A stretch of 64,000 bases of DNA from Patescibacteria group bacterium. GTDB taxonomy: Bacteria > Patescibacteriota > Patescibacteriia > JBDRGY01. Below, in pieces: positions 5,844-35,836 of the stretch. Location: positions 4,863 to 68,862 of the forward strand of contig JBDRGY010000016.1 of the NCBI GenBank assembly GCA_043817315.1. The letters are read 5' to 3'. The notes beneath the pieces were generated by a model, which was not told the origin of the DNA, did not search any database, and saw nothing but the letters and a program-made list of their open reading frames with translations. The number at the start of each line of letters is the position of its first letter. The stretch's first letter is position 1. A program made the translations under genes and the position numbers.

Positions 5844-5891
5844 ATCAATAAAAAAATTCCCCAAAGCATTGAGGGATTTTTTTATTGTGGA

Positions 5892-6080
5892 TTATTTTAA
5901 GCTAATGGCTCCCTCGGGACAGCTGTCTTTGGCGGCCTGGCAATCGCATTTACCCTCATCACATCCTTTAGGATCGGTCACTTTGGCCATGCCGTCTTCG
6001 TCAACTTTAAAAACCCCGGGACAAAGCGCCTCACAGGTACCACAGCCTACACACTTTTTTGTATCGATAATTGGTTTCAT
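5892..6080 (-). CDS. Small 4Fe-4S ferredoxin
   Basis: 62 aa with CVGCGTCEALCP cluster motif plus additional Cys. The antisense ORF 5869..6111 is discounted. Confidence 0.85.
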   Translation of the reverse strand: MKPIIDTKKCVGCGTCEALCPGVFKVDEDGMAKVTDPKGCDEGKCDCQAAKDSCPEGAISLK

Positions 6081-6085
6081 ATTTT

Positions 6086-6889
6086 TTATACAGCGATATT
6101 TTTTCTTTTAAATATTATTATTGATAAAGCTATTGATACGATGAAAACCGAAAGGAAGATGATAATAGATTGCACCGGCCACTCCCCGGTTCTTAAAATC
6201 TCCTGGGGATTGTAATAGTTGAAAAGACTTAGCCATTCAAAGTCTTTGATCTTATCGATAATTTCAGCCAAAGAATTGAGAACGTAAGAAACAATCAAAA
6301 AGGCAATGGCGATTAAATTGGCCCTGCCCCTTTCGTTAAAGATTACTGACAGCAAAAAGGCAATTCCTCCAAGGGCCAACATCAAAAGAATACCTTCTAC
6401 CGCCCAGATCCAATAGGAACCTTGATTTAAAGTAACATCTACCAAAGAAGCCGAGGCGAAAGTACCAAGTACCGTGATCAAAGTCATGGCCACCAGTATC
6501 AAGACCATGGATATTACTTTAGCTGATAGAAATTTGGTACGAGAAATCGGCTGCCATAAAATTAGCTCGAGAGTACCTCGTTCGTGTTCTTGGGCAATGG
6601 CGGCCGTGGCAAAAGAAATGGCCAAGCCCCCCACAATGAATACCCAGACAAAATTGTAATACTCCAGGCTCATAAATCCTTCGAAGGTCATAAATTCCAT
6701 CATGTCGCCGCCAAAAAAAGCCATTAGATTTTCCGGGTAAGCATCCATCAGTTCGACAAATTGGTCAGCGTTTTCTCTGATCGTCGGATAAAAGCTGCCG
6801 ATTAACATAGTATATCCGAAAATTACCAGAGCGAAAACAACGATACTGGTCCGGCGCAACTTGATAGTTTTTAGAATTACTGTCCACAT
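6086..6889 (-). CDS. ABC-2 type transporter permease
   Basis: 267 aa, 6 TM segments. Immediately downstream of and overlapping by 1 nt the ABC ATPase gene. Confidence 0.7.
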   Translation of the reverse strand: MWTVILKTIKLRRTSIVVFALVIFGYTMLIGSFYPTIRENADQFVELMDAYPENLMAFFGGDMMEFMTFEGFMSLEYYNFVWVFIVGGLAISFATAAIAQEHERGTLELILWQPISRTKFLSAKVISMVLILVAMTLITVLGTFASASLVDVTLNQGSYWIWAVEGILLMLALGGIAFLLSVIFNERGRANLIAIAFLIVSYVLNSLAEIIDKIKDFEWLSLFNYYNPQEILRTGEWPVQSIIIFLSVFIVSIALSIIIFKRKNIAV

Positions 6890-8202: not shown

Positions 8203-11200
8203 TTATTTTTGCAAATAGATGTCAAGGCTGTTTAACTTCTTGGTGTCTTTGGGCACCTCCAGGCACAATTGAAACAGTTGGTAACCCGGATCCTCCACGT
8301 GCACCTGATACTTCGCCTCATTAATGTTGAAAAAGAAAAATCCAACTTCATTGGTATTGATAGCCCGCTTAACCTTTTGCCCCTCATGGTTAAGGATTAT
8401 GACGTTAGCTCTATCGCGAGGCAATTTTGTCTGGCCGTCTAGGACTATACCCCAATACTTCTTCTTTAGTATCCGGTGTAAGGCCAAACCAACAACAATA
8501 GCTGCCTGCAGTAGTAAGATTAATAGGGCAGATGTTTTGGGCCAAATTGTGAGATAAAGGAAATTAAGGATGAAGTTAACAATAAGAACGATTAAGGCGG
8601 TGTGATACAGTTTTTTGTTTAATCTTTCGATGCCAGGATTTATTTGGCTAATGGGAACATTGATAAAAGGCTGTTTCTCTTTTACTTCTACCACGGCTCC
8701 AATATTACTATGAGGGTATCCTTTTTGAGGAAATCTTTTGACGTAAGCTGAGGGAAAATAGTAGCCAAATTTCCTGGCGGCTAAACCGTAAGTACCTGAT
8801 ATCAAATTGAATCCGTATTTACCTTCAGAGTCGGTAACCGTCTTTTTGACCTCTCCAGTAAGAGTATTGGTAATTTTTACTAAAACTCTGCCCAAGGGCC
8901 GTTTAGTCTGATCGTCATAGACGACACCCCAATAGTTTTTCTTTTCTTTCTTTATTAAGGCTAAAATCCAAAGCCAAAGCCAGAATAACCAAAAAGGAAT
9001 ATCCAGCCAGGTTAATAGACTATTGAATAATAATCCTATTCCCACCAGCAGAAGGAGTATTAATAAGATCAGCCCACTGGTTTCTACTATTCTGGGAAGG
9101 GCATCGTTTATCCTAGAAATCAACTCTTTGAGAAAATTGGGAATTTCCCTGATTGTTCTTTTGGTCTTGTCTATTAACGGTAATTCCGGGTCAGACCAAA
9201 TTTCCTTTATTTTTTCTACGGCCGTCGGTGGTACCGGAACTTCTACCACAAAATTAATTTCATCTGACCACCTACTCGTCACTCCTCGCTCATCAACTGC
9301 CCTGGCAATCACCTTATACTGACCATTTTTTAGCGGCTCCGGTAAATCAATTTGCCAGTTTCCCTTGCTGTCCGACTCTGTTATTAAATCATAGATAATT
9401 TGATCATCCTGAATAATCCTGACACTAATGGTTGCATTGGGAACAGCGATACCCTTTATGGTTATCAGGGGGGTGTCAAAAATCTGTCCGTCATAGGCTG
9501 GCTGAGTAATGGTTGGAGGTGGAATTTCGTATGATTTCTCTGTAATCTCAAAAGTTGTAGCCACCCCACTAATCATATTAGGGGCAGCAGCCGTAACACT
9601 ATAAGTGCCAGTTACGTCAGTCGCCTCTTCTGACAAAGTAGCATCAGCTATACCAAATTGATTTGTGGTTCCCGACAAGGTAATAACTCTTCCGGTGGGC
9701 TTGACGACGTAAAAAGAAACGGTAACACCTGAAACTTTATTGCCGTAACTATCAGTAACTGCCGTTGAAGTAATGGTAATGTTATCTCCGATCAGACCGT
9801 CATGGCCAGAGGCCGTAATTGTGCCAAGTTGGATTCCGGCTACCACGTCGATTTCGGTTTGGCTGCCAAAAATCGTGGGGTCATCTACATCAAGAGCTGT
9901 GACTGAACAAACGCCGACTGAATAGAAAATTACACTGCTTAAAAAGGTATGACTGCCAGAATCAGCTGCGGTAAAGGTGTAGTGTCCTGGCAAGATGGAG
10001 TTACTGCAATCTGAGCTAAAAGAAATTGTCCCGGTATAATCAGTTACGACATTGTTAGCAACATCCAAGGCAACTACTGTTACCTGACTGGCTTGCCCGG
10101 TTGTAATCGGGTCGAGGATGTCTTTTACTTCAAAGTGTGTGATCCCGGGCACTGGAGGTGGAGGGGGCGAAGGGGGCGGAGGTACAACCGGTACGGTAAT
10201 ATCAAAGGTGGTAGCCGTCCCTGTTGTTAAATTATCGGCCACCGCGGTTACACTATAAGCTCCCCCTAAATTTGTATCGGTACCGGCTAAAGTGGCACTG
10301 GCTATTCCAGAACTAGCAGTAGTGCCGGTTAAAGTAACGATGGACCCATCCGGCTTTGCGATATTAAATGTCACTGTTAGTCCGGCTACCCGGTTGCCAA
10401 AAGAGTCCGTTACCACTGAAGAAGTAATGGTGATGCTATCTCCAACCTGACCATCATGGCCGGAGGCGGTAATAGTGCCAGACTGATAGCCGGCAATTAC
10501 ATCGATATCAATTTGACTACCGCTAATCGAGGGGTGGGTTACGTCCGCGGCAGTAACAGCACAGACTCCTGCCCTTAAAAAGGCCACACTGTCAGAGAAA
10601 GTGTGAATCCCGGAATCTGAAGAGGTAAAAGTATAATTGGCGGGTAAGAAATTATTGGAACAATCTGAAGAAAAAGAAATGGTACCGGTGTAGTTGGTTA
10701 CCACCTGGTTATTGCTATCTAAAGCCGTAACGATCACCTGGCTAAAGGCTCCGGCTTCAATAGGATCAGTAATTCCTTCCACCTTTAAGTGAGTGGCCAC
10801 GGGCGGACCGACCAGAGAAGTTATCTCAAAAGTAGTGGCAGCTCCGGTAGTCATGTTGGACGCCGCAGCCGTAACTGCGTAAGTTCCAGCACTACTGGTC
10901 TGGGCTCCTGGTAAAGTTGCTGTAGCAATTCCCGAACTATTAGTGATACCCGTTAGAGTAGCCACTGTGCTATCTGGCTTGGTAATACTAAAAGTAACAG
11001 TAACGCCGGATACAAGATTGTTGTAAGCGTCTTTGACTACCGATGAAGTGATGGTAATATCGTCCCCCACCTGGCCGTCATGACCGGAAGCGGTAATGGT
11101 GCCGGTTTGCTGACCCGCTACCACATCAATATTAGTTTGACTTCCGGTAATTGAAGCGTGGGTGACATCAGTGGCCGTTACCGCACAAACGCTAACCGTA

Positions 11201-12177
11201 TTAAAAGAAACTGCACTGGCAAATGTCTTAGCTCCAGAATCAGCCCCTAGAAAAGTATAATTACTTGGTAGCGTTGCCCCGGCACAATCAGAAGAAAAAG
11301 TGACGGTGCCGGTATAGGCGGTGGCCACGTTATTAAAATTATCCAGGGCAATAACTTCTACATTACTAGTTTGGCCAGCTGTGATCGGGTCGGTAACCCC
11401 GCTGACCTGCAGGTGAGTAGCTGCCCCCGGATTGAGGGTTAAGTCAATTGTTTCCGAAACCGAGCCGCTTAATGCCTTAATGGTTACTGTTCCGCTGACT
11501 GTGCCGGCAGTATAGATTATCTGAGCCTGGCCCGAAGTGGTTGTAGCTGTGCCAGACGATAAAGAACCAGTGCCCGTTTCGATAGAAAAAGTAACTGTAG
11601 TCCCGTCAGCCACTGTATTCCCAAACTGATCGGTTAAAGTGGCAGTAATGGTAGAGGTGTCACTGCCATTAGCAGTCATGCTCAGAGCGCTGGCTGCCAA
11701 ACTAATATTGGCAACTGGACCAGGCAGAACAGTAATGTTGGCCTGGGAGGCGGTAACTCCCGGATTACCTACTTCGGTGACTGTCACCGTCTGTTCGCCA
11801 ACTGTAATTAACCGAACACTATTTATAAATGTGTGGCTGCCACAATCAGTGACCCTGACAAAAGTATAATCCCCTGGCAGCACAACCTGGGCATGGGGAT
11901 CCGTGGTGGTAAAATGAACTGTTTCTTCATAGGGACAGTGTAAGCCCCCTCCGGAGATAATAGCTTCTACCAGTACATTACTGTACTGGCCGGCTGTAAT
12001 CGGGTCGGTAATCCCTGATATTTCTAAATGGTCAAATACGCCAACGATAGACTGATAAAGTTGCGTTTGAGAGCCCTGAATTTTTTCATCCAACTGAAAA
12101 AGTTCCTCGTCTACTAAAAGAGGAACTGATCCTATGAGTAAAGCTAATAATAAAGCTATAAGATGTCGTTTGGACAT
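8203..12177 (-). CDS. Giant cell-surface protein with tandem Ig-like/Big_1 (invasin/intimin-like) modules, Pro-rich linker, and C-terminal region with two carboxypeptidase-regulatory-like domains interleaved with TM helices
   Basis: 1324 aa. N-terminal signal peptide. Three near-identical ~205-aa modules (…ITASGHDGQVGDxITITSSVV…VTF…). PPPPSPPPPPVP linker. C-terminal WGVVYDDQTKRPLGRVLV…GKYGF and WGIVLDGQTKLPRDRANV… beta-sandwich-like domains, each followed by hydrophobic segments. Confidence 0.8.
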   Translation of the reverse strand: MSKRHLIALLLALLIGSVPLLVDEELFQLDEKIQGSQTQLYQSIVGVFDHLEISGITDPITAGQYSNVLVEAIISGGGLHCPYEETVHFTTTDPHAQVVLPGDYTFVRVTDCGSHTFINSVRLITVGEQTVTVTEVGNPGVTASQANITVLPGPVANISLAASALSMTANGSDTSTITATLTDQFGNTVADGTTVTFSIETGTGSLSSGTATTTSGQAQIIYTAGTVSGTVTIKALSGSVSETIDLTLNPGAATHLQVSGVTDPITAGQTSNVEVIALDNFNNVATAYTGTVTFSSDCAGATLPSNYTFLGADSGAKTFASAVSFNTVSVCAVTATDVTHASITGSQTNIDVVAGQQTGTITASGHDGQVGDDITITSSVVKDAYNNLVSGVTVTFSITKPDSTVATLTGITNSSGIATATLPGAQTSSAGTYAVTAAASNMTTGAATTFEITSLVGPPVATHLKVEGITDPIEAGAFSQVIVTALDSNNQVVTNYTGTISFSSDCSNNFLPANYTFTSSDSGIHTFSDSVAFLRAGVCAVTAADVTHPSISGSQIDIDVIAGYQSGTITASGHDGQVGDSITITSSVVTDSFGNRVAGLTVTFNIAKPDGSIVTLTGTTASSGIASATLAGTDTNLGGAYSVTAVADNLTTGTATTFDITVPVVPPPPSPPPPPVPGITHFEVKDILDPITTGQASQVTVVALDVANNVVTDYTGTISFSSDCSNSILPGHYTFTAADSGSHTFLSSVIFYSVGVCSVTALDVDDPTIFGSQTEIDVVAGIQLGTITASGHDGLIGDNITITSTAVTDSYGNKVSGVTVSFYVVKPTGRVITLSGTTNQFGIADATLSEEATDVTGTYSVTAAAPNMISGVATTFEITEKSYEIPPPTITQPAYDGQIFDTPLITIKGIAVPNATISVRIIQDDQIIYDLITESDSKGNWQIDLPEPLKNGQYKVIARAVDERGVTSRWSDEINFVVEVPVPPTAVEKIKEIWSDPELPLIDKTKRTIREIPNFLKELISRINDALPRIVETSGLILLILLLLVGIGLLFNSLLTWLDIPFWLFWLWLWILALIKKEKKNYWGVVYDDQTKRPLGRVLVKITNTLTGEVKKTVTDSEGKYGFNLISGTYGLAARKFGYYFPSAYVKRFPQKGYPHSNIGAVVEVKEKQPFINVPISQINPGIERLNKKLYHTALIVLIVNFILNFLYLTIWPKTSALLILLLQAAIVVGLALHRILKKKYWGIVLDGQTKLPRDRANVIILNHEGQKVKRAINTNEVGFFFFNINEAKYQVHVEDPGYQLFQLCLEVPKDTKKLNSLDIYLQK
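9520..11430. repeat. Three tandem ~650-bp coding repeats inside the giant surface-protein gene. A fourth divergent copy lies near 11700-12020
   Basis: Protein-level modules aa ~250-455, 455-680 and 680-885 are 60-80 percent identical. Nucleotide blocks visibly recur (e.g. ...ccatcatggccggaggcggtaat...). Confidence 0.7.
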
Positions 12178-12240: not shown

Positions 12241-14406
12241 TCAATTCCTACGGTATATTCTCAAACTATTGGAGATAACCGTCACGTCAGAGAACCCCAT
12301 GGCCAAGGCCGCCACCATCGGATTGACAAAGCCTAAAATGGCCAGGGGAATGGCTAAGACATTATAGAAGAAGGCCCAGAAAAGATTTTGTTTGATAATC
12401 TTAAAAGTTTTTTGAGATAACTTTATGGCTTCTGCAATTTTTATGGGATTACTTTGCATTAGTATAATGTTCCCTGATTCTTTGGCAATGTCGGTCCCCT
12501 TGCCCATGGCAATGCCTAAGTCAGCTTGGACCAAGGAAGGGGCGTCGTTAATGCCATCGCCGGCAAAGACTACTTTTTCTCCCTCTTCTTGTAATTGCTT
12601 TACTTTCTGAGATTTCTGATCTGGTAAAACCTCAGCCAAAACATTTCTTATGCCTAACTTCTTGGCTACCGATTGAGCCGTATTTTTATTATCTCCGGTT
12701 ATCATAATTTCTTTCAATCCCATCTTCTTTATCTCCGCAATGGTATGAGCTGCTGTTCCTCGGACAGTATCGGCCAGGGCGATTAATCCGATTACTTTTC
12801 CCTCCAAAACCACAAAAACAGCGGTGTTACCTTCTTTCTCCAGAATCGTTTTCCGATTTATAACTTCTTGGTTTAATTCAATAGTATTCTCCTGCAACAA
12901 ATTTTTTGTGCCGATTATCATTTTCTTATTATCAACGTGACCGATCACCCCTTTGCCACTTATTACCTTAAAATCAGTCACCGGCAATAACTCGATTTTT
13001 TGCTTTTTAGCTTTTTGGTAAATAGCTTGAGCTAAAGGATGTTCTGAGTTTTTTTCTAAAGAAGCGGCTAAACGCAACAATTCTTTGGAATCAAAAGTGT
13101 TGTCTATTGGCGAAATCTTTTTTACTTCAACTTCTCCCTTAGTCAAAGTGCCTGTTTTGTCAAAAACTACAGTCGTTATGTTTTTGGCCCGTTCAAAACT
13201 TTCACCGTCTTTAATCAAAATTCCTGACCTGGCCCCCACACCCGAGCCAACCATTATAGCAATAGGCGTAGCAATGCCCAGGGCACAAGGACAAGCAATA
13301 ATTAAAACAGAAACAGCCGGAATTATTGCCTCGGTAATGTCATTTTTAAAGAAAAACCAACCGACAAAGGTGAGAATGGCAACTGCTATTACGATCGGAA
13401 CAAATATACCAGAAATTTTATCCGCTAATTTCTGTACTGGCGCTTTGTAAGCCTGGGCCTCTTCCACTGTTTTTATTATCTGAGCCAATACAGTGCCCGA
13501 ACCCACTTGGCTGACTTTTATTTTCAAGACTCCGTCCTGATTGATGGTTCCCCCAAATACTTGATCGTCAACAACTTTGGTTACTGGTAAACTTTCTCCG
13601 GTCAACATCGATTCATCAACTCCGGAAGATCCGTCTATTACTATTCCATCCAGCGGAATCTTCTCGCTTGGTTTGATCAACAAAATATTTCCGATATCAA
13701 TCTGATCAACTTCCACTTCTCTTTCCTGACCATTGTTATCAATTAATCTGGCCTTTTTAGCACCCAATTCCATTAATTTTTTCATGGCTAAAGAAGCCTT
13801 GCCCTTGGTTTTTATCTCCATATAGCGGCCCAGCAAGATCAAGGTGGTGATAGTGGCGGCTCCCTCAAAATACTCAGGGTGGCCAGCTATTATTGCCCAA
13901 ACGCTGTAAATAAAGGCAGTTAACGTCCCCAGGGAAATTAGAGTGTCCATGTTGGCCTTGAATCTTTTGAGTTGCTTCAACATTCCCACATGGAATTGCC
14001 AACCAAAAACAAAGACAATGATGCCGGTAACAATCATCAGAATCCAGTCGGTATATTCAATCCCAGCCAGTTGACCAACTATCTCCCACGACCAAAACAT
14101 CCGAATAAATATCGGTATGGTCAGGGCTGCTGATATTAAAACTTTGATTAATTCTTTTCGTTCTTCTTGGTTTTTTGCTGATTTCTCTTCGCTTGGCTCC
14201 TCGACAGTATAGCCCGCATCTTTAATAACCATCTTTAACCCTTCCAGTTTGATTGCTGATTCATCGTATTCAACCATGGCCTTGCCTGTGGCGAAATTAA
14301 CGCTGCTGGTTTTAACACCCCCCGCTTTCTTTAAGGCCTTATCAATACTAACGGCACAAGCCGCACAATGCATATCTTGGATTTTTAATACAGTTTTTTC
14401 TGCCAT
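12241..14406 (-). CDS. copA: Copper-translocating P1B-type ATPase
   Basis: N-terminal HMA domain [11 protein letters not shown] transmembrane metal site ([12 protein letters not shown]). DKTGTLT phosphorylation site. GDGINDAP hinge. Confidence 0.92.
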
Positions 14407-14431: not shown

Positions 14432-14460
14432 CTGGGAATAAACCAAGGGCTTATTCCCAG
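14432..14460 (-). terminator. Perfect 10-bp-stem hairpin between the HMA-DsbA gene and copA (partial terminator/attenuator)
   Basis: ctgggaataa-accaagggc-ttattcccag. On the minus strand it is followed by an A/T-rich stretch. Confidence 0.4.
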
Positions 14461-14526: not shown

Positions 14527-15543
14527 TTATTCCTCATTTAGTATGCTGTCGATAAGGGATTGCATCTGGTCATAAGGCAAGGCCCCTGGCACTAATTGAC
14601 CGTTAATTATATTGCCCGGTGTTCCAGAGACCCCCACATTACCTCCTCCTTGAAAATCACCGTCTACCTTGGAGGCATATTTATCCGAATCAACACAATC
14701 ATCGAACTGACTTGTATTAAGGCCCATGTCTTTAGCTGCTTGTTTCAGATATGAAGGAGTAATGCTGGATTGGTTGGCAAACAGCTCGTCAGTGTACTCC
14801 CAGAATTTGTCTTGATCAGCCGCACACTCCGAAGCTTCGGCTGCATCCCTGGCATAAGAATGGAGAGAGTCTAGGGGGAAGTGTTTATAGATCCATCGGA
14901 CATCGTTGGGATAATTGGCCATTACTTGCTTCATAGTATCGTGGAATTTGCTACAGTACGGGCACTGGAAATCTGAATATTCTACGATGGTAACCGGCGC
15001 GTTAAAATCCCCTCTGATATGATCATCTTGGGTAACTTCGACATCAACAACAGTTGGCGAAGGAGTGGGACTGGGTGATGGAGAAGGGACCGGTGTAGGA
15101 TCTGCCACAGCAACATTATCTCCAGCTACCTGTGGCGTACCACTTGCTGAATCGCCCTCGTTTGAGTTCATTCCTAATACCACAAAAAAACCAACAGTCG
15201 AAATTACTGATATACCAATCAATGCCCCAAGGATCATTGCCTTCTTTGGTGAGTCGGTACTTTGTTCTATACCTTCATCACCGTCTGTTGTCTCACTTCT
15301 TCTATCAATTTTTTCTTCCGCTCCTTCCACCTCGTAGTCCCCCGCTTGTTCAACCACTTGATGAATTTCAGATTCTTTAATCTTTTGTTCGTTATAAAAT
15401 ACAGAACCCTTCCCTGAATCATAGTTTACTTTTACTCTGTCAATTCCTGGTTTATTTTTTAATCTTTCCTCGATTAAAAGAGCACAGGAATTGCAGTGCA
15501 TGCCTTGGATTTTGAAAGTTGTTTTTTGCATAGTTTTATTCAT
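14527..15543 (-). CDS. Fusion protein: cytoplasmic HMA metal-binding domain, TM anchor, Pro/Ser/Thr linker, extracytoplasmic DsbA-like thioredoxin domain
   Basis: MHCNSCALLIEERL (HMA MxCxxC). One hydrophobic helix. PTPVPSPSPSPTPSPT linker. DsbA-type active site FQCPYCSKFH and C-terminal SGTP motif. Confidence 0.75.
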   Translation of the reverse strand: MNKTMQKTTFKIQGMHCNSCALLIEERLKNKPGIDRVKVNYDSGKGSVFYNEQKIKESEIHQVVEQAGDYEVEGAEEKIDRRSETTDGDEGIEQSTDSPKKAMILGALIGISVISTVGFFVVLGMNSNEGDSASGTPQVAGDNVAVADPTPVPSPSPSPTPSPTVVDVEVTQDDHIRGDFNAPVTIVEYSDFQCPYCSKFHDTMKQVMANYPNDVRWIYKHFPLDSLHSYARDAAEASECAADQDKFWEYTDELFANQSSITPSYLKQAAKDMGLNTSQFDDCVDSDKYASKVDGDFQGGGNVGVSGTPGNIINGQLVPGALPYDQMQSLIDSILNEE

Positions 15544-15563: not shown

Positions 15564-17069
15564 TTATTTTTGTTTAACCCTTGCACAACCACACCCTCCT
15601 TGCTGAGCAGCGGCACAATCTCCTCCACACGAACCATCTCCTGAGCAACCCGAGCCGGCTGGCAGATCAACTGCCTCCAGCTCCAAATCTCCTTGGGACG
15701 GTTTAGCGTCATTTTCTGTTACCACGAATTTCCCCCAAACCATCTGCATCCAGCAGCTGAACTTGAGATCTCCTAATTCATCGGGTGTAAATTCAATGAC
15801 ATTTTCTCCATACTCTAGTGGTTTTCTAATGTTATATGTCGGCATGATAATTTCATCTGTACAACCACTCATCTGTTTCACATCAATAATCCAGCGAACC
15901 GGTATATCTTTCTTTACATACATTACATTCGGCGAATACCCCCGGTAAGTCAGCTCCATTTTGGCCACTTGATATTCTTCCACGTCTCCGGTTATTAAAT
16001 ATTCGGTTTGGCTAACTTCTTCCTGCGAAACAAAACCTCTAAAACCGTAGCCGAAATTGATCATGCCTCTGTTCAACATAAATAGTCCTAAAATTATTAC
16101 TATCGCTCCAGATATTTTCATCACTTGTTTAATCCGCTGCCGGCTAATCAGTGAAATGAAAGCACCAAACCCGAACATCAAAGGGACAGTGCCCAGGGCA
16201 TAAACCCCCATCGACAAAGCTCCTCTGGTGATACTGCCAGAAGCTAAAGCGTATATCTGCATGGCCTGTAAAGGTCCGCAGGGCATAAAACCATTTAGCA
16301 ACCCGATAATGAATGGCCCTTTGGGCTTTTTGGTGTGTCGCTGTTTAAAAAGAAAACGTGCAATAAACGAAGGGGTTTTTAGTTTTAGTTTCTGCAGCCA
16401 TCGAAACTCAGTGACCAGAGACAAGCCCATTAATACCATAAAACCGCCAGCCACTAAGGTAACCGTTCCAGTAAAAGTGGGATTGATCGCGAAAAACGAC
16501 CCAAAGCCACCTAAGATACCTCCAATTACGCTATATGAAATGAGCCGCCCTAGATTATACTGCCAGTGAGGTAGAGACGATTTTACTTTATGGTCTTTGT
16601 TGTCAGCTTGATGTTTGGCAGTATAAGTAACCACCAAACCTCCACACATGCCTACACAATGAAAACTGACCAAAAGACCAATCACAAATATTAACCAATA
16701 ACCGATTCTTTCTTCGTTTAATTTGGAAAGAATTTCTAAAACGCCGAATTGTTTTATTAAATAATAGCCTAAGACAAAAACAATTAATAAGATCCCGGCA
16801 ATAATGAATCTTTTGGGAATGTTTAATTTTTTTCGTGGCCCTGTTCTGCCTACGATTTTATCCTTTACTTGATAATCAAGTTTACTGATTGCCTCAAAAA
16901 TTTTCTTTTTGGAAATTTTCTGATCATCGTACTCTATCAGACATGCTCCTGTTTGATGGTTGACTTCAATATCCTTTACACCTCCTAAAACATCTACTTC
17001 TGTTTCAATTAAGGTTTTGCAACCTTTGCAGTAAGTTCCCTCTATTTGGATGTTTATTTTTTTTAGCAT
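15564..17069 (-). CDS. HMA-like N-terminal domain fused to a DsbD_2-like polytopic membrane domain and a C-terminal cupredoxin-like domain with a Cys/Gly-rich tail
   Basis: N-terminal YCKGC ferredoxin-like domain. Membrane core with HCVGMCGG and MPCGP motifs. Soluble beta-rich C-terminus. Tail GSGCSGDGSCGGDCAAAQQGGCGCA. Confidence 0.6.
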   Translation of the reverse strand: MLKKINIQIEGTYCKGCKTLIETEVDVLGGVKDIEVNHQTGACLIEYDDQKISKKKIFEAISKLDYQVKDKIVGRTGPRKKLNIPKRFIIAGILLIVFVLGYYLIKQFGVLEILSKLNEERIGYWLIFVIGLLVSFHCVGMCGGLVVTYTAKHQADNKDHKVKSSLPHWQYNLGRLISYSVIGGILGGFGSFFAINPTFTGTVTLVAGGFMVLMGLSLVTEFRWLQKLKLKTPSFIARFLFKQRHTKKPKGPFIIGLLNGFMPCGPLQAMQIYALASGSITRGALSMGVYALGTVPLMFGFGAFISLISRQRIKQVMKISGAIVIILGLFMLNRGMINFGYGFRGFVSQEEVSQTEYLITGDVEEYQVAKMELTYRGYSPNVMYVKKDIPVRWIIDVKQMSGCTDEIIMPTYNIRKPLEYGENVIEFTPDELGDLKFSCWMQMVWGKFVVTENDAKPSQGDLELEAVDLPAGSGCSGDGSCGGDCAAAQQGGCGCARVKQK

Positions 17070-17077: not shown

Positions 17078-17893
17078 TTAAAAAAGTTCAGCCACTTGTT
17101 CTATATCTGATTGGTCAATGGCTAGCTTGCCGTTTACAACTTGCAAATTGGGATTTATCGGCCCGGGGTTGCAGCCACCTTTTTCTGATGCAATTTTGGT
17201 TAACGGATATTGATTCCCACACGTTTTGCAAATCATATTATCTCCCTGTTGGTAAAAACCCATTCGTGTATCAAAACAAACCTGGCAAGCATTGGCAGCT
17301 GCCCGATAAATTCCATTTTTATCTTTGACTACAAAAAAGTAAACGATTTTTTCACTAGGCATCTCTACATTATAAAAGTGGGCTTTTCCGTCATCAAGCG
17401 TGCTGGCTGTCACACTTACTTGTTTATTTTCCAGAGTAACTTTCTCTCCCTGCTCCCCTGTAAAATCAGGCTGGGTGGCTTGGCTTCCTTTTACGTTATT
17501 AACATTTTGAGCGGCTGATGATTTACTTTGATTGGAATCTCCTTGTCCGGAACTGAATAGCCAATAACCCGAAACTAGAACAACCAATGTCACTCCGGCA
17601 ATAATCAATCTTTTGGGTGTAAACATTTGTTTTTTTTGCTTGGCTTCATTTTGTTTTTTTTGTTCAGGCTTGTTCACGGGTTTCCCTTTGACTCGATAAT
17701 CGAGTTTATTGATTTCTTCAAAAATCTTCTTTTTAGAAATTTTCTGATCATCAAATTCTGCCCAAGCTTCTCCTGTCCCAGAATCAACCTCGATGTTATT
17801 TACTCCTTCCAGTACATTTATCTCGGTTTCTATCTTGGTTTTACATTTTTGGCAATGAGTTCCTTCTATTTGAATATTTATTGTTTTAAGCAT
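17078..17893 (-). CDS. HMA-like N-terminal domain fused via a TM helix to an extracytoplasmic CxxC...CxxC domain
   Basis: N-terminus MLKTINIQIEGTHCQKCKTKIE is about 65 percent identical to the N-terminus of the preceding gene. C-terminal CQVCFD...CKTCGNQYP Cys pairs. Confidence 0.55.
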   Translation of the reverse strand: MLKTINIQIEGTHCQKCKTKIETEINVLEGVNNIEVDSGTGEAWAEFDDQKISKKKIFEEINKLDYRVKGKPVNKPEQKKQNEAKQKKQMFTPKRLIIAGVTLVVLVSGYWLFSSGQGDSNQSKSSAAQNVNNVKGSQATQPDFTGEQGEKVTLENKQVSVTASTLDDGKAHFYNVEMPSEKIVYFFVVKDKNGIYRAAANACQVCFDTRMGFYQQGDNMICKTCGNQYPLTKIASEKGGCNPGPINPNLQVVNGKLAIDQSDIEQVAELF

Positions 17894-17899: not shown

Positions 17900-18265
17900 T
17901 TACTCACACTTATTACTTGTAAATTCGCAAGATGAGCCAGTGTCTCTAATTAAACCACTTTGACACTGCGGACATGGCTTCTCTCCCCTAGCGATGAATT
18001 GATCACAGGCACAGGTGCCTGCCTGATGATTATTCCATTGGTTGGCTTCCATGAAACACATAGTACAGGGAGGATTAATACAGCATCCATAATCTCCAGC
18101 TGCTACCGCCTTGCTTATAGCTAAGTCTCTTTCTTCGATTATCCTACTTAACATTTCGCCTGGGCCCAAGTTTTCAAAAGCAGGATTCATAATTGTTAAA
18201 ATTAGAAATCCAATTACTCCCCCTATTAGAAACATCGTCAACCAGGTAAGAATTTTCTTAGTCAT
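17900..18265 (-). CDS. Membrane-anchored Cys-rich putative metal-binding protein (PCYCGC-like motif)
   Basis: 121 aa. N-terminal TM helix. 12 Cys including GCCINPPCTMC, TCAC and PCPQC. Confidence 0.45.
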   Translation of the reverse strand: MTKKILTWLTMFLIGGVIGFLILTIMNPAFENLGPGEMLSRIIEERDLAISKAVAAGDYGCCINPPCTMCFMEANQWNNHQAGTCACDQFIARGEKPCPQCQSGLIRDTGSSCEFTSNKCE

Positions 18266-18267: not shown

Positions 18268-18546
18268 TTACTTATTAAATAATTTGGTGACGGTTAAAAT
18301 TTCTTTAACCATCTCCTGTTTTCTTTTCTCGTTGGTTGTGCCCATAGCTTTTTTGAAGCAAGTATCGAGATGGTTTTCCATCAACATTTGATGGGCTGAT
18401 TTTAATAGCCCAATAACCGCTAAGTTTTGTTGCATAATGTCTATGCAATATTCATTGTCCTCAAGCATCTGGACAATTTTTGCGATGTGGCTCTGGGCTT
18501 TTTTAAAATTGATCAACGATTTCTCTTTGTGTTTGGTCATAGTCAT
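18268..18546 (-). CDS. csoR: CsoR/RcnR-family metal-sensing transcriptional repressor
   Basis: 92 aa, all-helical DUF156-type. Conserved Cys (YCIDIM), His (SAHQMLMENH) and Cys (DTC) in Cu(I)-CsoR positions. Confidence 0.85.
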   Translation of the reverse strand: MTMTKHKEKSLINFKKAQSHIAKIVQMLEDNEYCIDIMQQNLAVIGLLKSAHQMLMENHLDTCFKKAMGTTNEKRKQEMVKEILTVTKLFNK

Positions 18547-18561: not shown

Positions 18562-18584
18562 TACCTATACCATAGGTATAGGTA
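18562..18584. promoter_or_regulatory. Candidate CsoR operator: perfect 10-bp inverted repeat with 3-bp spacer just downstream of a putative -35/-10 and upstream of csoR
   Basis: TACCTATACC-ata-GGTATAGGTA. Resembles the CsoR ATACC...GGTAT-type pseudo-palindrome. Preceded on the coding strand by TTGACT and an A/T-rich -10. Confidence 0.5.
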
Positions 18585-18637
18585 TAATAATACAAACAAA
18601 AAATAAGTCAATTAAGACTTATCAACAGTCCCCATTA

Positions 18638-19486
18638 TTAGCCGAACATCAACCAGGCCGGTTTGAATAACATTAGTAACCCAATTACTAACATCAATAT
18701 TCCCCCGATTAGAGCTGAGGCACGAGTGTATTTACTGGTCAGGCCTACTGCCCTAAGGGTAACCATAGCTACAATAAAGACAATCATATCATCCAGCATA
18801 AAGATGAAGATATACAGGGCTATATAGAGATAATATTGAGAGGTAGGAATTTCTGACATAGTCAGAATCTGGGTATAAACAACTGGCAAGCCGGCCGAAC
18901 AGATTACCTCAACTAAGTTAACTGCAAAGGCCAGCAGGATAATCCCGCCCAAGGCCAGCCAAAACTGTTTTTTTTGAGTAATGGTTCTCAGCTTGTCAAA
19001 AATCTGGCGCCTTTTCTCTCCTTCACTGGCCGGACAACCCGGTCGATTGTCCCACCATTTTTTCAAATTGTAATAGGCAGATCCCAGGGCTACTAAACCA
19101 ATTATGGTCCGGACCCATCGGAAAAATCCCAAGAAAGTGAGAACATTGAGCCAGGCCACCATAAATAGGAAATAGACAAAGGCCGAAGCCAAGATAAAAG
19201 TGGAGCCGAAAATCCACATTCTTTTTCGGTCTTTCATGTTCAGCAGTAGACTAATCAAAAATAACAACACCCACATAGCGCAGGGATTAAAGCCGTCCAG
19301 GGCACCGATAATCACTGTCAAAATTGGCAAGGACACTGATGCAGTTTTTAGTTCACCGATAAACGGTAAATTGATAGTTTCTGGAATTTCCGTAAATTCC
19401 TGGGCCGCAGCTCCTTGAACCAAACAAAATAAAAATAGGACTACTATTAATCCTATTAATAAACGTTTTGTTTTTTTATAACTCAT
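18638..19486 (-). CDS. ccdA: CcdA/DsbD-family transmembrane thiol-disulfide electron transporter
   Basis: Polytopic. Conserved GFNPC motif in TM1 and second Cys in a later TM (VICSAGLPV). Confidence 0.8.
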   Translation of the reverse strand: MSYKKTKRLLIGLIVVLFLFCLVQGAAAQEFTEIPETINLPFIGELKTASVSLPILTVIIGALDGFNPCAMWVLLFLISLLLNMKDRKRMWIFGSTFILASAFVYFLFMVAWLNVLTFLGFFRWVRTIIGLVALGSAYYNLKKWWDNRPGCPASEGEKRRQIFDKLRTITQKKQFWLALGGIILLAFAVNLVEVICSAGLPVVYTQILTMSEIPTSQYYLYIALYIFIFMLDDMIVFIVAMVTLRAVGLTSKYTRASALIGGILMLVIGLLMLFKPAWLMFG

Positions 19487-19989
19487 TGCTTGCCCAGCTT
19501 TCTAATCACAAAAACCACAACCACCACCAGAACTAACGTTCCTCCCAGAGTATACCAAACCAGACTACTATCTGATTGATTCCCCTGAAAGCTACTGATA
19601 ATTTCTGCTATCTGGTTGCTACAATTACCCGCCAAACATTTATCTATCTTTTCCTTGATCTGGGTTCCGGTCAGATCGGCATCGTAAAAGCCGCCTACGT
19701 ATTCATCGTTAATAAAAGTTACCGGTACTCCCCTAACATCAGCATCGAGTGATTTGCCTATTTCTTTGAGCAAATTTGCATTTCCGGGATCATTGTAGGT
19801 TTCGTACCTTATAATCTCTACCTCGGGGTACTGATCAGGCAGAGTGGCCAAAAACTCTTCTTCCTCAGCACAATGCGGGCAGCCCTCTCCATAAAAAAAG
19901 TAAAGACTAACCTCCTGAGCCAATACTGGTCCGGCTCGGAATATAAGTGATAAAAAAATGATTGCTAATAAAAATTTAAGTTTGTTCAC
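19483..19989 (-). CDS. Secreted, membrane-anchored thioredoxin-like oxidoreductase (CPHC active site)
   Basis: Signal peptide. GEGCPHCAEEEEFL. Second CxxxC (CLAGNC). C-terminal TM helix. Overlaps ccdA by 4 nt. Confidence 0.7.
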   Translation of the reverse strand: MNKLKFLLAIIFLSLIFRAGPVLAQEVSLYFFYGEGCPHCAEEEEFLATLPDQYPEVEIIRYETYNDPGNANLLKEIGKSLDADVRGVPVTFINDEYVGGFYDADLTGTQIKEKIDKCLAGNCSNQIAEIISSFQGNQSDSSLVWYTLGGTLVLVVVVVFVIRKLGKQ

Positions 19990-19990
19990 T

Positions 19991-20257
19991 CTATTTCTCC
20001 TTATTGTTCTCCAAGATTGAGATTAATTCTTGTTTATCCACTTCCCCATATATTCTTTTAAATTCCTGGCCCGATTTGTCTAAAAAAATAAAACAGGGGT
20101 AATCGGTAATGTTATAATTCTTAACATATTCTGGATTTTCGTCAACATCCATATATTTTGTTTCCAACCAAGGTAATTCCTTTTCAATCTCTTCCCAGCG
20201 CGGTTTCATCACCAGGCAGCCGGCACACCAGATAGCTCCGAACTTTAATACTTTCAT
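19991..20257 (-). CDS. Small thioredoxin (WCAGC)
   Basis: 88 aa. WCAGC active-site motif and thioredoxin fold pattern. Confidence 0.75.
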   Translation of the reverse strand: MKVLKFGAIWCAGCLVMKPRWEEIEKELPWLETKYMDVDENPEYVKNYNITDYPCFIFLDKSGQEFKRIYGEVDKQELISILENNKEK

Positions 20258-21214: not shown

Positions 21215-21964
21215 TTACTCTAAAAGAAGCAGCAGTAGCATTAAACCGATTCCCACCAGAAAAATTAGCAACTGTAATATACTCCTGCCGATCTTGGTTT
21301 CTTTTTTTAATTCGGGGATTAAATCTGCTGTAGCAATGTAAATAAACCCACCAATGGTAAGCGGGACAACAAAACTTAAAATATTATCTAGTTGCTCGTT
21401 TAAAGACAATATTACTATTGCCCCAACAATCGCCAGAAGGGCGGTTAGAAAATTGGTGAGTAAAGCTTTCTTCCGAGAAAAACCAGCGTGCAGCAATACT
21501 CCAAAATCACCAATTTCCTGAGGAACCTCGTGGAGAATTACAGCGACACTGGTGGCAATTCCCACTGGGATACTAACCAGAAAACTTCCGGCGATGATCA
21601 TGCCGTCAATCAAATTGTGCAAGCCATCTCCGATTAAATTGGTATAGGCAAAGGGGTGGGGATGATCATCTGATGTCGGAATATGGCAATGCCGCCAATA
21701 AAGAACCTTTTCTAGAATGAAAAATATGACAATCCCCAAAAGAATGTATAGAGAAAGCTGCAGTTCAGTACCACAGGCTTCAAAGGCTTCGGGCAGTAAA
21801 TGGATAAAAGCACCGCCTAGCAGACCGCCCGCTGACAAGCTAACCAGAAAAAGCAGGGCTTTTTTTAATTTCTCTTGAGAAACGGAAAAACTAAATACCC
21901 CGATTAGGGAAATCAGGCTGATAACAACCACTGAACCTAAGGTATAAAGCCAAGTTTCGGTCAT
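21215..21964 (-). CDS. zupT: ZIP-family divalent metal transporter (ZupT-like)
   Basis: HEVPQEIGDFGVLLHAGFS signature. 8 TM segments. Confidence 0.85.
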   Translation of the reverse strand: MTETWLYTLGSVVVISLISLIGVFSFSVSQEKLKKALLFLVSLSAGGLLGGAFIHLLPEAFEACGTELQLSLYILLGIVIFFILEKVLYWRHCHIPTSDDHPHPFAYTNLIGDGLHNLIDGMIIAGSFLVSIPVGIATSVAVILHEVPQEIGDFGVLLHAGFSRKKALLTNFLTALLAIVGAIVILSLNEQLDNILSFVVPLTIGGFIYIATADLIPELKKETKIGRSILQLLIFLVGIGLMLLLLLLE

Positions 21965-22022
21965 AAAATCATTATAACAAAAAAGGCCCGATTATATAAC
22001 CGTGCCTCAATTAACAAACCCC

Positions 22023-23456
22023 TTATTCCCTTCTCAGGGCATCAATGGCATCCATTTTGGCAGCTTTGGCTGCCGGGTATAATCCAGAAACCAACCCCAC
22101 TAAAGTGGAAAAAGCAATCACTCCTACTAATAGATACCAGGGAATAACGATAATGCTATCAACGGAAAAGCTTTGGTCTGACATAATCCGGCCAGCCACC
22201 AAATTGACTATTTTAGACAACCCATAACCTGAGGCTGCTCCCAAAAAGCCGCCCCAAAAACCGATAAAGGCCGCTTCAATGGTAAATAGTCTCCTGACTG
22301 CTGCCCGAGAAGCACCCACTGCTTTCATCACACCAATCTCTCTGGTTCTTTCCATGGTAGCCATCACCATAGTATTAATAATGCCGATAGCTGCCACTAC
22401 CAGGGCAATGCCACCAATGGCACCCAAAACTATTTGGATTATTAAAAATAGTTTTAAGATATCGTCCAAAAAATCTTTGGCCGTGATTGCTCCCAATTCC
22501 AGCTCTTCAACGGCTGTGGCAACCGCTTCTACGTTCTCAGCATTGTTAACTAAAGCGATCAAAGACTGGTAGCCGTCCTCGGCAATCTTGTCTCTGGAGA
22601 CTAATTGTCCTATTGGCTGTGGCCAATCGGAATCAGCATATTGAACTCCGTATTGGGTTTGTTGTTCCATTTCTTGGCGGATAACTTCCACTCTCTGGTA
22701 TTCTTCCTCGGTTGGTTCTCCCCAATTCTGTTCCGTCATCAGTCGCCTAGCCCAGCCATCGGTGACGTAACTATTTCTATCATTCATTCCCGGATTAGAG
22801 ACACCTATTATCTCCGCTTCAATGTCGTAAGATCTCTGCCAATCTTCATTGGGGTCTCCCGGTTCCGGAACTCCTGTTTCTAAACTATGATAGCCCTCCC
22901 AAGTGGTAAAAGTAACTTTCTTACCCAAAACATCATTGGGATCTAATTCAAAATAATCAACAAAGGCATGGCCGAGAATTATTTTATTCATTTCATCATC
23001 AGAGGTAAAATTGCGGCCAGCAATTAAATCAACTTGACTAGCCTCGTTAATTCTCATACTTGATACATTGGCATTGGGTATTTTTTTCTCTTGTCCCTCA
23101 ATCAGCATGTTCTGTAGCGGGTGAACATGGACTGTAGGATTAACCGCTATTACATTAGTGATAGCTTCAACTTTGGCAATAATTTCGTCGTCTAATTTTA
23201 TTCCATCATCAGTCTCCCCAAATCCTCCGCCAAAAAAGGTGGCTTCGATATCTTGAGTGGGTAAGACGGTTACTTGATTCAAAACTCCGGCCTTTTCCAG
23301 CTGCTGCATAAATACGTTTTGGGCGCCCATGGCAATAGAAGTTAGGCTGACTACAGCCAAGGCACCGATTAATACAGCAATGATAGTCAAGAAGGTGCGG
23401 ATCTTTCTACGCCATAAGTTCTTGAAGGCCATTTTTAGATAATCAAAAAAGCGCAT
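22023..23456 (-). CDS. ABC transporter permease, FtsX/MacB-like with large periplasmic domain
   Basis: N-terminal TM, ~250-aa periplasmic insert, C-terminal FtsX-type 3-TM bundle. Confidence 0.8.
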   Translation of the reverse strand: MRFFDYLKMAFKNLWRRKIRTFLTIIAVLIGALAVVSLTSIAMGAQNVFMQQLEKAGVLNQVTVLPTQDIEATFFGGGFGETDDGIKLDDEIIAKVEAITNVIAVNPTVHVHPLQNMLIEGQEKKIPNANVSSMRINEASQVDLIAGRNFTSDDEMNKIILGHAFVDYFELDPNDVLGKKVTFTTWEGYHSLETGVPEPGDPNEDWQRSYDIEAEIIGVSNPGMNDRNSYVTDGWARRLMTEQNWGEPTEEEYQRVEVIRQEMEQQTQYGVQYADSDWPQPIGQLVSRDKIAEDGYQSLIALVNNAENVEAVATAVEELELGAITAKDFLDDILKLFLIIQIVLGAIGGIALVVAAIGIINTMVMATMERTREIGVMKAVGASRAAVRRLFTIEAAFIGFWGGFLGAASGYGLSKIVNLVAGRIMSDQSFSVDSIIVIPWYLLVGVIAFSTLVGLVSGLYPAAKAAKMDAIDALRRE

Positions 23457-24118
23457 TAGCGTATCCTCCCGTCATGCATTTTAATAATGCGCTCGGCGTA
23501 TTTAGCCATTTCCGGATCATGAGTCACCATCACAATGGTCACTTTTTGCTTCTTATTTAAATCTTGCAACAGGGCCATAATTTCTTTTCCGGTTTTGGTG
23601 TCCAGATTACCTGTTGGCTCATCAGCCAAAATAATTTTTGGGTTATTGATCAAAGCCCTGGCAATAGAGACTCTTTGCCGCTGACCAGCTGACAGCTGAT
23701 TGGGCCGATGCTTCAATCGATTTCCCAGTCCTACCACCTTTAATGCTTCAGCAGCTCGCTTCTTCTTTTCTTTGTCGCCCACCCCGGCAAAATACAGAGG
23801 AAGCATCACGTTTTCGACAGCAGTATAAAACGGCTGTAAATTAAAAGATTGGAACACGAAACCAATCTTTTGATTACGATATTTAGATAAGACCTTGTCT
23901 TTCAACCGGCCTAGGTCCTCATTATCAATCAATACTGTGCCAGAATCCGGAGAATCAAGTCCGCCGATTAGATTCAAAAAAGTCGTCTTACCGGAACCAG
24001 AGGGACCCATAATGGCCACGAATTCCCCGTCTTGGATTTTGAGATCAACGTGGAATAAGGCATTGATAGGGTCACCGCCCACTTCGTAGCGACGACTGGT
24101 GTTTTTTAACTCGATCAT
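23456..24118 (-). CDS. ABC transporter ATP-binding protein (MacB/LolD-like)
   Basis: GPSGSGKTT. LSAGQRQRVSIARAL. ILADEPTGNLD. Confidence 0.9.
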   Translation of the reverse strand: MIELKNTSRRYEVGGDPINALFHVDLKIQDGEFVAIMGPSGSGKTTFLNLIGGLDSPDSGTVLIDNEDLGRLKDKVLSKYRNQKIGFVFQSFNLQPFYTAVENVMLPLYFAGVGDKEKKKRAAEALKVVGLGNRLKHRPNQLSAGQRQRVSIARALINNPKIILADEPTGNLDTKTGKEIMALLQDLNKKQKVTIVMVTHDPEMAKYAERIIKMHDGRIR

Positions 24119-31428: not shown

Positions 31429-31627
31429 CAAATCTAGATATTTATTATAAGGTAGACCATTCTATTTGGGACGAATTAGCTTCAAATAGAGGGTACTTTG
31501 ACATCTGAATAATCCAAGGAAAAAACGATAAAAACAGAAGAAAATCCCTTAGTTGGGAGGAAGGAGTTCTGATGGATTACTGCCCGTAAGCAACATTGGA
31601 AACACGCACCCGAAAGGAGAAACGAAA

Positions 31628-32281: not shown

Positions 32282-32297
32282 AAGGGGGTAAAACCAG

Positions 32298-35827: not shown

Positions 35828-35836
35828 GGGGTGGGC

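Follow-up and report, generated by a model that had tools for sequence, protein, structure and literature searches.

We analyzed a 64,000-nucleotide stretch of contig JBDRGY010000016.1 from a Patescibacteria group bacterium (hereafter the window), in which one gene encodes an N-terminal heavy-metal-associated (HMA) domain joined through a single transmembrane (TM) helix and a linker to a DsbA-like domain. The gene (hereafter HMA–DsbA) lies in an operon with a CsoR-family repressor and a CopA-type P1B ATPase, a conserved context that strongly supports a role in copper handling. With moderate confidence, we propose that its product is a copper-induced, membrane-anchored, ScsC/BdbD-like extracytoplasmic thiol-disulfide oxidoreductase whose HMA domain acts as a tethered CopZ-like chaperone or a dock for CopA. 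A preliminary description of this DNA had treated such a coupling of metal binding to disulfide chemistry as an oddity; instead, the protein belongs to a conserved Patescibacterial family that is already present in databases, without a name.

A single ORF joins an HMA domain to a DsbA-like domain

The open reading frame (ORF) and the parts of its product are listed below; pLDDT denotes the per-residue confidence of an AlphaFold2 model built from an alignment of 20 family members (mean pLDDT 79), and fused clusters are the 66, among the 120 best-scoring 90%-identity clusters, that have an HMA+Thioredoxin_4 architecture. All family counts below come from these 120 clusters.

14527–15543, minus strand: HMA–DsbA ORF, 338 codons, no internal stop; HMA–tether–TM–linker–DsbA-like domain
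15322–15531, minus strand: HMA domain, predicted cytoplasmic (residues 5–74); beta-alpha-beta-beta-alpha-beta, pLDDT >90
15484–15495, minus strand: HMA metal-binding motif C17-N-S-C20, part of GMHCNSC; present in 64 of 66 fused clusters and in 19 of 20 aligned sequences
15247–15321, minus strand: acidic disordered tether from HMA to TM (residues 75–99); 9 D+E versus 4 K+R, pLDDT <50
15169–15246, minus strand: single TM helix KKAMILGALIGISVISTVGFFVVLGM with GxxxG (residues 100–125); helix in the AlphaFold2 model
15052–15102, minus strand: Pro/Ser/Thr-rich linker DPTPVPSPSPSPTPSPT (residues 148–164), predicted extracytoplasmic
14533–15036, minus strand: DsbA-like thioredoxin-fold domain (residues 170–337); pLDDT about 90 or above
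14953–14964, minus strand: active site C194-P-Y-C197; C194 and P195 invariant in the 20-sequence alignment
14617–14625, minus strand: cis-proline loop G307-T308-P309, invariant in the alignment; GTP in 65 of 66 fused clusters
14695–14826, minus strand: span between the Cys pair C240 (14824–14826) and C283 (14695–14697), both invariant in the alignment

The preliminary description had read a single ORF with one HMA domain, one TM helix, a linker, and a DsbA-type domain in that order, and Pfam, hydrophobicity, and AlphaFold2 all bore this out. The motifs it quoted were likewise all found: MHCNSCALL at residues 15–23, FQCPYCSKF at residues 192–200, and DPTPVPSPSPSPTPSPT at the position given above. 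Pfam matched HMA (PF00403) to residues 9–68 (E=3.5e-13; 50.2 bits versus a cut-off of 24.8) and Thioredoxin_4 (PF13462) to residues 172–332 (E=8.9e-31; 107.7 bits versus 23.2), with DSBA (PF01323) also matching within the latter range (E=8.8e-22; 78.3 bits versus 25.6). The C-terminal domain has the features of the DsbA-like family, namely a thioredoxin fold with an inserted helical domain, a CxxC at the N-terminus of helix 1, and a cis-Pro loop. The second pair of invariant cysteines, C240 and C283, probably forms a structural disulfide.

The interval of the gene stands as first given, but its orientation had to be corrected to the minus strand and its start probably lies four codons further in. 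An identical NCBI protein (P0001; 100%, 334 aa) begins at the second Met, MQKT, at window position 15531, and this Met (M5) is also the start in all homologues. The true start is therefore probably M5, four codons after the first ATG, and those four codons are probably untranslated. A TGA lies in frame two codons 5′ of the first ATG, making an N-terminal extension or a hidden signal peptide impossible.

The hydrophobicity profile contained only one hydrophobic 19-mer, at residues 104–122, and none at the N-terminus; each of the 20 aligned fused proteins likewise has a single hydrophobic segment. The most likely topology is N-in/C-out, with HMA in the cytoplasm and the DsbA-like domain outside. 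The earlier suggestion that the two domains sit on opposite faces of the membrane thus draws support from the presence of one TM helix, the lack of a signal peptide, and the lack of room for an N-terminal extension. Homology to unfused relatives that are signal-anchored points the same way. It had called the outer location periplasmic; a location outside the cytoplasm is likely, but 'extracytoplasmic' is the safer term for these organisms, which are not known to possess an outer membrane.

We also considered whether a missed stop or frameshift had produced a chimeric ORF, or whether the membrane does not separate the two domains, as would be the case if HMA were exported in the manner of MerP. 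MerP shows that an HMA domain can be extracytoplasmic, and the weak NCBIfam MerP/MerTP matches of the protein reflect this shared fold. However, there is no N-terminal hydrophobic segment, the in-frame stop closes off any extension, export of a charged N-terminal stretch of about 100 residues without a signal peptide would be unexpected, and a cytoplasmic DsbA domain would carry its second invariant Cys pair in the wrong compartment. An artefact of assembly or frameshift was excluded, since the same uninterrupted architecture occurs in the 66 independent fused clusters, many of them on several contigs and in independent assemblies. Taken as a whole, this explanation is extremely improbable, and its artefact part is effectively refuted.

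HMA–DsbA is encoded in a conserved copper operon

The gene is immediately upstream of copA, as first described, in the same orientation and 120 nt away. The gene order is csoR – Cys-rich protein – HMA.FtrD-like – HMA.CcdA-like.CupA-like – HMA.TM.DsbA – copA, comprising the following features:

12241–14406, minus strand: CopA-type P1B ATPase with an N-terminal HMA and a CPC motif (Cys372/374)
15564–17069, minus strand: constant upstream partner; HMA–extra TM–6-TM CcdA/DsbD_2 core–CupA-like cupredoxin, predicted extracytoplasmic–Cys/Gly tail
17078–17893, minus strand: FtrD-like protein, HMA–TM–FtrD-like (PF10080, formerly DUF2318; Pfam)
17900–18265, minus strand: membrane-anchored Cys-rich protein, 121 aa, with an N-terminal TM helix and 10 Cys (CC, CxxC, CxC, CxxC ...)
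18268–18546, minus strand: CsoR-family repressor (PF02583; Pfam)
18584–18611, minus strand: promoter-like site TTGACT-16-TATTAT upstream of csoR, 10/12 matches, one of six sites tied for the region's top score
18561–18585, no strand assigned: perfect 25-nt palindrome ATACCTATACCatAGGTATAGGTAT, overlapping the promoter-like site; zero occurrences in shuffles

The palindrome is probably the CsoR operator, and related ATACCTrTACC...GGT motifs occur upstream of csoR in eight other loci. A search for the canonical Firmicutes CsoR box, TACCCnnnnGGGGTA, found no enrichment in the window; the palindrome at the csoR promoter is a different one.

Exactly four HMA domains occur in the 64-kb window, each at the N-terminus of one of the operon's four consecutive membrane proteins, and the window contains no free HMA ORF of CopZ size. 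These four HMA-bearing membrane proteins, with the HMA–CcdA-like–CupA-like neighbor among them, are a wider context that the preliminary description missed. The HMA+TM modules of the proteins at 15564–17069 and 17078–17893 are 57% identical, and since this identity extends through the TM helix, the 'HMA + one TM' unit has been copied as a module within the operon. The HMA domain of HMA–DsbA is only 24% identical to this duplicated module. An HMA on the FtrD-like protein was seen only in the window and in L089.

We then compared 14 distinct loci carrying the fused gene (the window, L001, L002, L004, L007, L008, L010, L013, L029, and L086–L090), with fused and unfused genes assigned by their ORF-level hidden Markov model architecture. 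A CopA-type ATPase with its own HMA follows on the same strand in 13 of the 13 informative loci, and an HMA–DsbD_2–cupredoxin gene lies directly upstream in 12 of 14, with a truncated copy at the contig end in L007. CsoR is present in 8 of the 14, and the FtrD-like and small Cys-rich membrane proteins are recurrent. The closest relative, L089, has the gene order of the window plus a methyltransferase gene before copA. The 10-Cys membrane protein, which matched no family in the Pfam and NCBIfam scans, is found again in the cop operons of L006, L009, L010, L011, L029, L041, and L089.

Unfused genes serve the same operon elsewhere. L006 and L009 have a TM–DsbA protein without HMA in the order CsoR–FtrD–Cys-rich–DsbA–HMA.DsbD_2.Cupredoxin–HMA.CopA, and cop operons with unfused TM–DsbA were also found at L011, L041, and L015. 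The HMA domain is thus an accessory addition. Most other unfused relatives (80 loci scanned; 36–55% identity) have no cop genes within 10 kb and are often in tandem DsbA arrays.

The constant upstream partner resembles CcdA and CupA

Across 14 orthologues of the partner protein, C138 in core TM1 and C264, as PCG, in core TM4 are invariant, which is the CcdA/DsbD pattern. Two cysteines in the cupredoxin (C403...FSC439xMxM) and two in the tail are also invariant. Loop K+R counts fit a 7-TM topology that would place the cupredoxin outside. The cupredoxin (residues about 363–450) is homologous to Streptococcus pneumoniae CupA (PDB 2mry/4f2e; E=1.1e-15) and to the cupredoxin domain of CopA (4f2f), and the C...CxMxM Cu(I) ligands of CupA align with residues that are invariant in the partner. 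By TM counting, the partner's cupredoxin lies outside, whereas the soluble domain of CupA is cytoplasmic.

The fused proteins form a conserved family in Patescibacteria

The preliminary description had proposed looking for the same domain order in other genomes, and the 66 fused clusters share it. Their members are 314–346 aa long and 41–54% identical to the query, and many are found on several independent contigs. Sources with names were Patescibacteria, Parcubacteria, Kerfeldbacteria, Nealsonbacteria, or simply 'bacterium', and a Falkowbacteria locus (L013) is also fused; from this range we excluded third-party-annotation records of metagenome-assembled genomes titled 'uncultured Gammaproteobacteria', as these titles look like placeholders. 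The automatic label of the Joint Genome Institute for the family is 'protein-disulfide isomerase/copper chaperone CopZ'. An exhaustive search of 50%-identity representatives with a full-length profile was dominated by multi-DsbA-repeat proteins, with four fused proteins among the 150 listed.

The active site is CPFC in 48 fused clusters, CPYC in 11, and CPFS in six (P0056, P0099, P0064, P0071, P0090, and P0111). In two of these monothiol members, P0056 and P0099, a Cys gained three residues upstream (SCFECPFS) may represent a CxxC in a shifted position. The HMA CxxC is absent from two of the 66 fused proteins. In L090, whose lineage's HMA–DsbA (P0078) lacks both HMA cysteines, an ArsR/HTH_5–YHS regulator at 5664–6143 replaces CsoR.

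The nearest unfused relatives are 233–246 aa long, 53–60% identical over the shared part, and built as a short N-tail–TM–linker–DsbA, indicating that the fusion is an ordinary signal-anchored DsbA that gained an N-terminal cytoplasmic HMA. The acquired domain does not look like a recent local copy of a neighbor's HMA, and we rejected that origin: the HMAs of the DsbA proteins average 42–54% identity to one another (about 26% for the divergent L013), versus 33–43% to CopA HMAs and 19–33% to the DsbD_2 HMAs of their own loci, with L004 (46%) as the exception. This pattern defines an old orthologous group that is nearest to ATPase metal-binding domains, and its retention over about 50% divergence argues for selection on the fusion. 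The divergent HMA of L013 may reflect a second, independent fusion event; the HMA–DsbA gene there (9992–11035) has as neighbors a free-standing HMA gene of 67 aa and a CopA that bears two HMAs.

The TM helix raises the possibility that the protein is a Cu(I)-triggered oligomerization switch. Cu(I) bridges HMA domains in CopZ dimers; if it bridged two HMAs here, with help from GxxxG or Asn in the TM helix, two or more ectodomains would be drawn together, and a monomeric DsbA-like enzyme would become a multimeric isomerase of the DsbC/ScsC kind at high cytoplasmic copper only. GxxxG is present in the TM helix of the window protein and in that of 16 of the 17 close unfused relatives; among the other fused members, most have Asn-in-core or small-xxx-small motifs, and the HMA CxxC is conserved. 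In addition, oligomeric state is discussed as a determinant of ScsC-type activity in two studies (PMC11634996, PMC5524982). Against this, 20 of the 66 TM segments lack every motif that was scored, conservation of the TM sequence is poor otherwise, and linkers that are long and disordered on either side of the membrane would transmit proximity weakly. We regard this switch, a purely inferential idea, as quite improbable.

A model for copper-linked thiol-disulfide exchange

In the model that we favor, a rise in cytoplasmic Cu(I) would lead CsoR to leave its palindromic operator, and the whole operon would be transcribed. The HMA–DsbA protein would insert N-in/C-out, which leaves HMA on the cytoplasmic side and the DsbA domain on the other, where the ScsC-like CPxC domain could reduce or reshuffle disulfides misformed in envelope proteins by extruded copper, transiently bind Cu(I), or both. 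The CcdA/DsbD-like protein encoded next to it would probably keep the ectodomain reduced, drawing electrons from cytoplasmic thioredoxin; a thioredoxin gene lies just upstream of the operon (19991–20257; Pfam). On its roughly 25-residue acidic tether, HMA would be a membrane-tethered CopZ surrogate that picks up Cu(I) and docks with the N-terminal HMA or the entry platform of CopA, both feeding the pump and setting the ectodomain beside the copper exit. The 'HMA + one TM' handles of the neighboring proteins would bring the operon's ectodomains together at CopA, comparable to the clustering of P-type ATPases by PacL scaffolds. The earlier suggestion of a link between copper and disulfide chemistry outside the cytoplasm, such as repair of damaged thiols, is plausible from the CsoR/CopA operon context, whereas nothing supports its suggestion that HMA senses metal; the domain looks like a Cu(I) carrier of the CopZ/ATPase metal-binding-domain type.

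Three observations favor a reductive direction: the constant CcdA-like neighbor, the operon's lack of a recognized DsbB/VKOR, and the six CPFS variants, whose single active-site thiol cannot cycle as an oxidase. The Pfam and NCBIfam scans recognized no DsbB, BdbC, or VKOR among the operon genes. Patescibacteria usually lack the quinones and respiratory chains that DsbB and VKOR require. The docking idea, in turn, is based on the same kind of handle being borne by three different ectodomain proteins, on the absence of a free CopZ from the window, and on the CsoR regulons of Firmicutes, which lack CopZ and include HMA–DsbD_2–DUF2318 membrane proteins (PMC4938975). CupA and PacL (PMC13460109) are experimental precedents for membrane-anchored chaperones or scaffolds of P1B-ATPases. 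A bolder version seems rather unlikely to us, namely that 'HMA + one TM' is a portable address tag assembling a copper-dependent trans-membrane complex around CopA. In such an HMA-based 'effluxosome', the DsbA-like, CcdA/CupA-like, and FtrD-like proteins would attach to the pump or to each other through HMA arms loaded with Cu(I). The amount of cytoplasmic copper would then directly set how close together, how oligomeric, and how active the thiol-redox and Cu(I)-capture domains are at the copper exit outside, so that metal status on the inner face of the membrane would be coupled to disulfide chemistry on the outer.

The two domains might instead be independent modules, with an ordinary oxidizing DsbA of the BdbD/MdbA type enhancing the oxidative folding of secreted proteins during copper stress and HMA as a parked CopZ or Cu(I) buffer, linked by co-expression only and without cross-talk. 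The closest relatives are unfused TM–DsbA proteins with the same kind of active site (8 CPYC, 8 CPFC, and 1 CSYC among the 17 closest), most unfused relatives lie outside cop operons, unfused orthologues serve the same operon, the solved relatives include the true oxidases BdbD, Corynebacterium diphtheriae DsbA, and Mycobacterium tuberculosis DsbA, and a parked HMA would fit a window without free CopZ. However, no DsbB/VKOR-type oxidant was noticed in the operon, where a CcdA/DsbD-like protein is the constant neighbor, and the CPFS variants are incapable of an oxidase role. The handle on three different ectodomain proteins and the persistence of the DsbA HMAs as an orthologous group of their own are also not what independent modules would suggest. 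This explanation is possible, although we lean against it.

Several points weigh against the chaperone-and-dock model that we favor. All of its mechanistic steps are ones that we infer. HMA appears dispensable over evolution, given the unfused orthologues in the same operon and the two of 66 members that lost the HMA cysteines; as an evolutionarily optional domain, it would make any coupling an enhancement rather than the core function. The AlphaFold2 model has disordered linkers at residues 77–100 and 126–160, and such long linkers on both sides of the membrane weaken the case for strong coupling. The net charge of HMA gave no signal of docking to CopA. The active-site motif does not separate cop-operon proteins from their closest unfused relatives, a minority of which had their gene contexts examined, and it therefore does not establish a reductive direction. 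The positive-inside bias behind the predicted topology is modest, with 174 K+R before the TM helix versus 126 after it, summed over the 66 fused proteins. Finally, the DsbD_2 partner has a weak NCBIfam match to the ArsG family, and the subtype in the window has HCxxMC in TM1; instead of conducting electrons, this protein could be a permease for Cu(I) or a metalloid.

Comparison with known systems

By both sequence and fold, the ectodomain is about equally close to the membrane-tethered DsbAs of monoderms and to ScsC proteins (sequence E about 1e-13; Foldseek E 1e-11 to 1e-9; 20–28% identity). Foldseek matched it to C. diphtheriae DsbA/TsdA, BdbD, and ScsC, with a target-normalized TM-score of up to 0.89 against solved DsbA-like proteins. 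The best NCBIfam match, to the Rcas_1661 family thioredoxin-like (seleno)lipoprotein (NF041057), fell below its cut-off (113.6 versus 190 bits). For the HMA domain, the best solved relatives were the N-terminal metal-binding domains of ATPases, and the CopZ models NF033794 and NF033795 scored 53.8 and 47 bits, below their cut-offs of 95 and 91.

ScsC of Salmonella, Proteus, and Caulobacter shares the Pfam family and the DsbA-like fold (E about 1e-13 to 1e-9). Salmonella ScsC (StScsC) has the same CPYC and Thr-cisPro as the window protein, whereas most fused family members have CPFC. CPYC is the motif of ScsC and DsbG, and ScsC and ScsB bind Cu(I) and can hand it to CueP (PMC10907172). ScsC is also copper-induced, adjoins a gene for a DsbD-superfamily membrane protein, and has been proposed to act in envelope thiol repair or Cu(I) handling (PMC10907172). 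However, ScsC occurs in diderms as a soluble protein of the periplasm, either a monomer or a trimer held together by an N-terminal stalk, and CpxR/A regulates it, whereas the Patescibacterial protein, 21–24% identical to it, is predicted to be membrane-anchored with HMA inside and is apparently under CsoR control. In place of the ScsB of ScsABCD, with its Ig-fold domains, the partner gene encodes a DsbD_2 protein of CcdA size that carries HMA and a CupA-like cupredoxin, and the window operon contains no scsA or scsD equivalents.

The best matches, Bacillus subtilis BdbD, C. diphtheriae DsbA/TsdA/MdbA, and M. tuberculosis DsbA (Rv2969c), are likewise built as an N-terminal TM anchor–linker–DsbA. 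The window protein has the Thr-cisPro loop of these monoderm DsbAs and an invariant extra Cys pair. The monoderm proteins, in contrast, have no cytoplasmic domain and are housekeeping oxidases, reoxidized by BdbC or VKOR and encoded outside cop operons. On the cytoplasmic side, the HMA domain shares the beta-alpha-beta-beta-alpha-beta fold, the GMxCxxC motif, and cop-operon encoding with CopZ and the N-terminal metal-binding domains of CopA/ATP7B, but it differs from a free protein of 70 aa and from a pump domain in being tethered by a TM helix to an enzyme that is predicted to lie outside.

Two systems resemble HMA–DsbA in design. The S. pneumoniae CupA–CopA pair exemplifies the principle of a membrane-anchored Cu(I) chaperone for CopA, with a cupredoxin as the tethered cytoplasmic domain where the Patescibacterial protein is predicted to have an HMA. 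In the PacL–Ctp 'effluxosomes' of M. tuberculosis, a single-pass protein is encoded with a P1B-ATPase and its cytoplasmic part binds the metal-binding domain of the pump (PMC13460109). The cytoplasmic part of PacL1 also binds metal, and PacLs self-associate through a small-residue TM motif and cluster pumps (PMC13460109). Here the similarity is an analogy of design only: PacL is a DUF1490 protein without an ectodomain and has no sequence relationship to HMA–DsbA, and a Pfam scan of the window operon proteins gave no DUF1490 match. The closest operons described are the CsoR regulons of Firmicutes, which have no CopZ yet include HMA–DsbD_2–DUF2318 membrane proteins. They thus share the HMA-DsbD_2 and DUF2318/FtrD-like neighbors, but no DsbA-type component or HMA–DsbA fusion was reported in them (PMC4938975). 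We found no description of the fusion or of its Patescibacterial operon in the literature searched.

Local features and wider neighborhood

The spacer before copA contains one further element:

14432–14460, minus strand: hairpin with a 14-bp stem in the 120-nt spacer, unique in the window

A strong hairpin had been noted here, and it is real: the 136-nt region containing it folds at −40.1 kcal/mol (z=−5.08), and no shuffle equals this. It was not supported as an intrinsic terminator, as it has no T-run and was not terminator-like in a terminator scan, and its occurring only once in the window ruled out a repeated element. In other genomes, copA follows the dsbA-like gene by about 10–25 nt, marking the hairpin as a local feature outside the conserved design.

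Just upstream of csoR is a trio of thiol genes (18638–20257, minus strand). These encode, first, a cytoplasmic thioredoxin of 88 aa (WCAGC); second, a secreted, C-terminally anchored Grx/Trx-like protein of 168 aa (CPHC); and third, a polytopic membrane protein of 282 aa without a Pfam or NCBIfam match, in which two TM segments contain Cys ('NPC' and 'ICS'). In L015 (6177–7445), the last two genes are fused as one 422-aa ORF. Taken together, the three resemble a second thiol-disulfide relay that is not annotated. A ZIP-family metal transporter and a MacB/FtsX-type ABC exporter, encoded at 21215–24118 (minus strand), just upstream of the thioredoxin genes, point to a wider metal and envelope-stress neighborhood.

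Directly downstream of copA (8203–12177, minus strand) is a gene for a 1324-aa repeat-rich surface protein with three repeats of roughly 190 aa, a proline-rich spacer, and C-terminal TM segments. Farther away, a block at 31500–36700 (plus strand) has a guanine-plus-cytosine content of 0.50–0.53 versus about 0.40 elsewhere, with a tRNA gene (36950–37022) at its border. Its genes specify an ABC transporter with a binding protein in which an NMT1-like domain is fused to an OmpA domain, and the block may have been horizontally acquired.

Discussion

Copper kills bacteria partly through mis-oxidation of envelope thiols, and the best-studied defenses against this, Scs and DsbC, are known from Proteobacteria. 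All parts of the system described here come from known families, and Scs already provides an example of a copper-linked DsbA-like protein with a DsbD-like partner. What is new is the TM tether to a cytoplasmic HMA, together with the use of that handle across the operon.

Genome-reduced, uncultivated Patescibacteria thus keep a dedicated DsbA-like enzyme in a copper-export operon, and many lineages add a cytoplasmic copper-binding arm to it. Its small size and modular build would make HMA–DsbA accessible to study in E. coli or B. subtilis. Were the arm to dock with CopA, the protein would offer a simple, testable case of an outside repair or capture enzyme aligned with a pump that is loaded inside, and such docking, if true, would extend the emerging idea of organized metal-efflux platforms. 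The conserved, unstudied set of proteins that accompanies it (HMA–CcdA-like–CupA-like, FtrD-like/DUF2318, and the 10-Cys membrane protein) may replace CopZ, CueO, and Cus-type functions where these are lacking.

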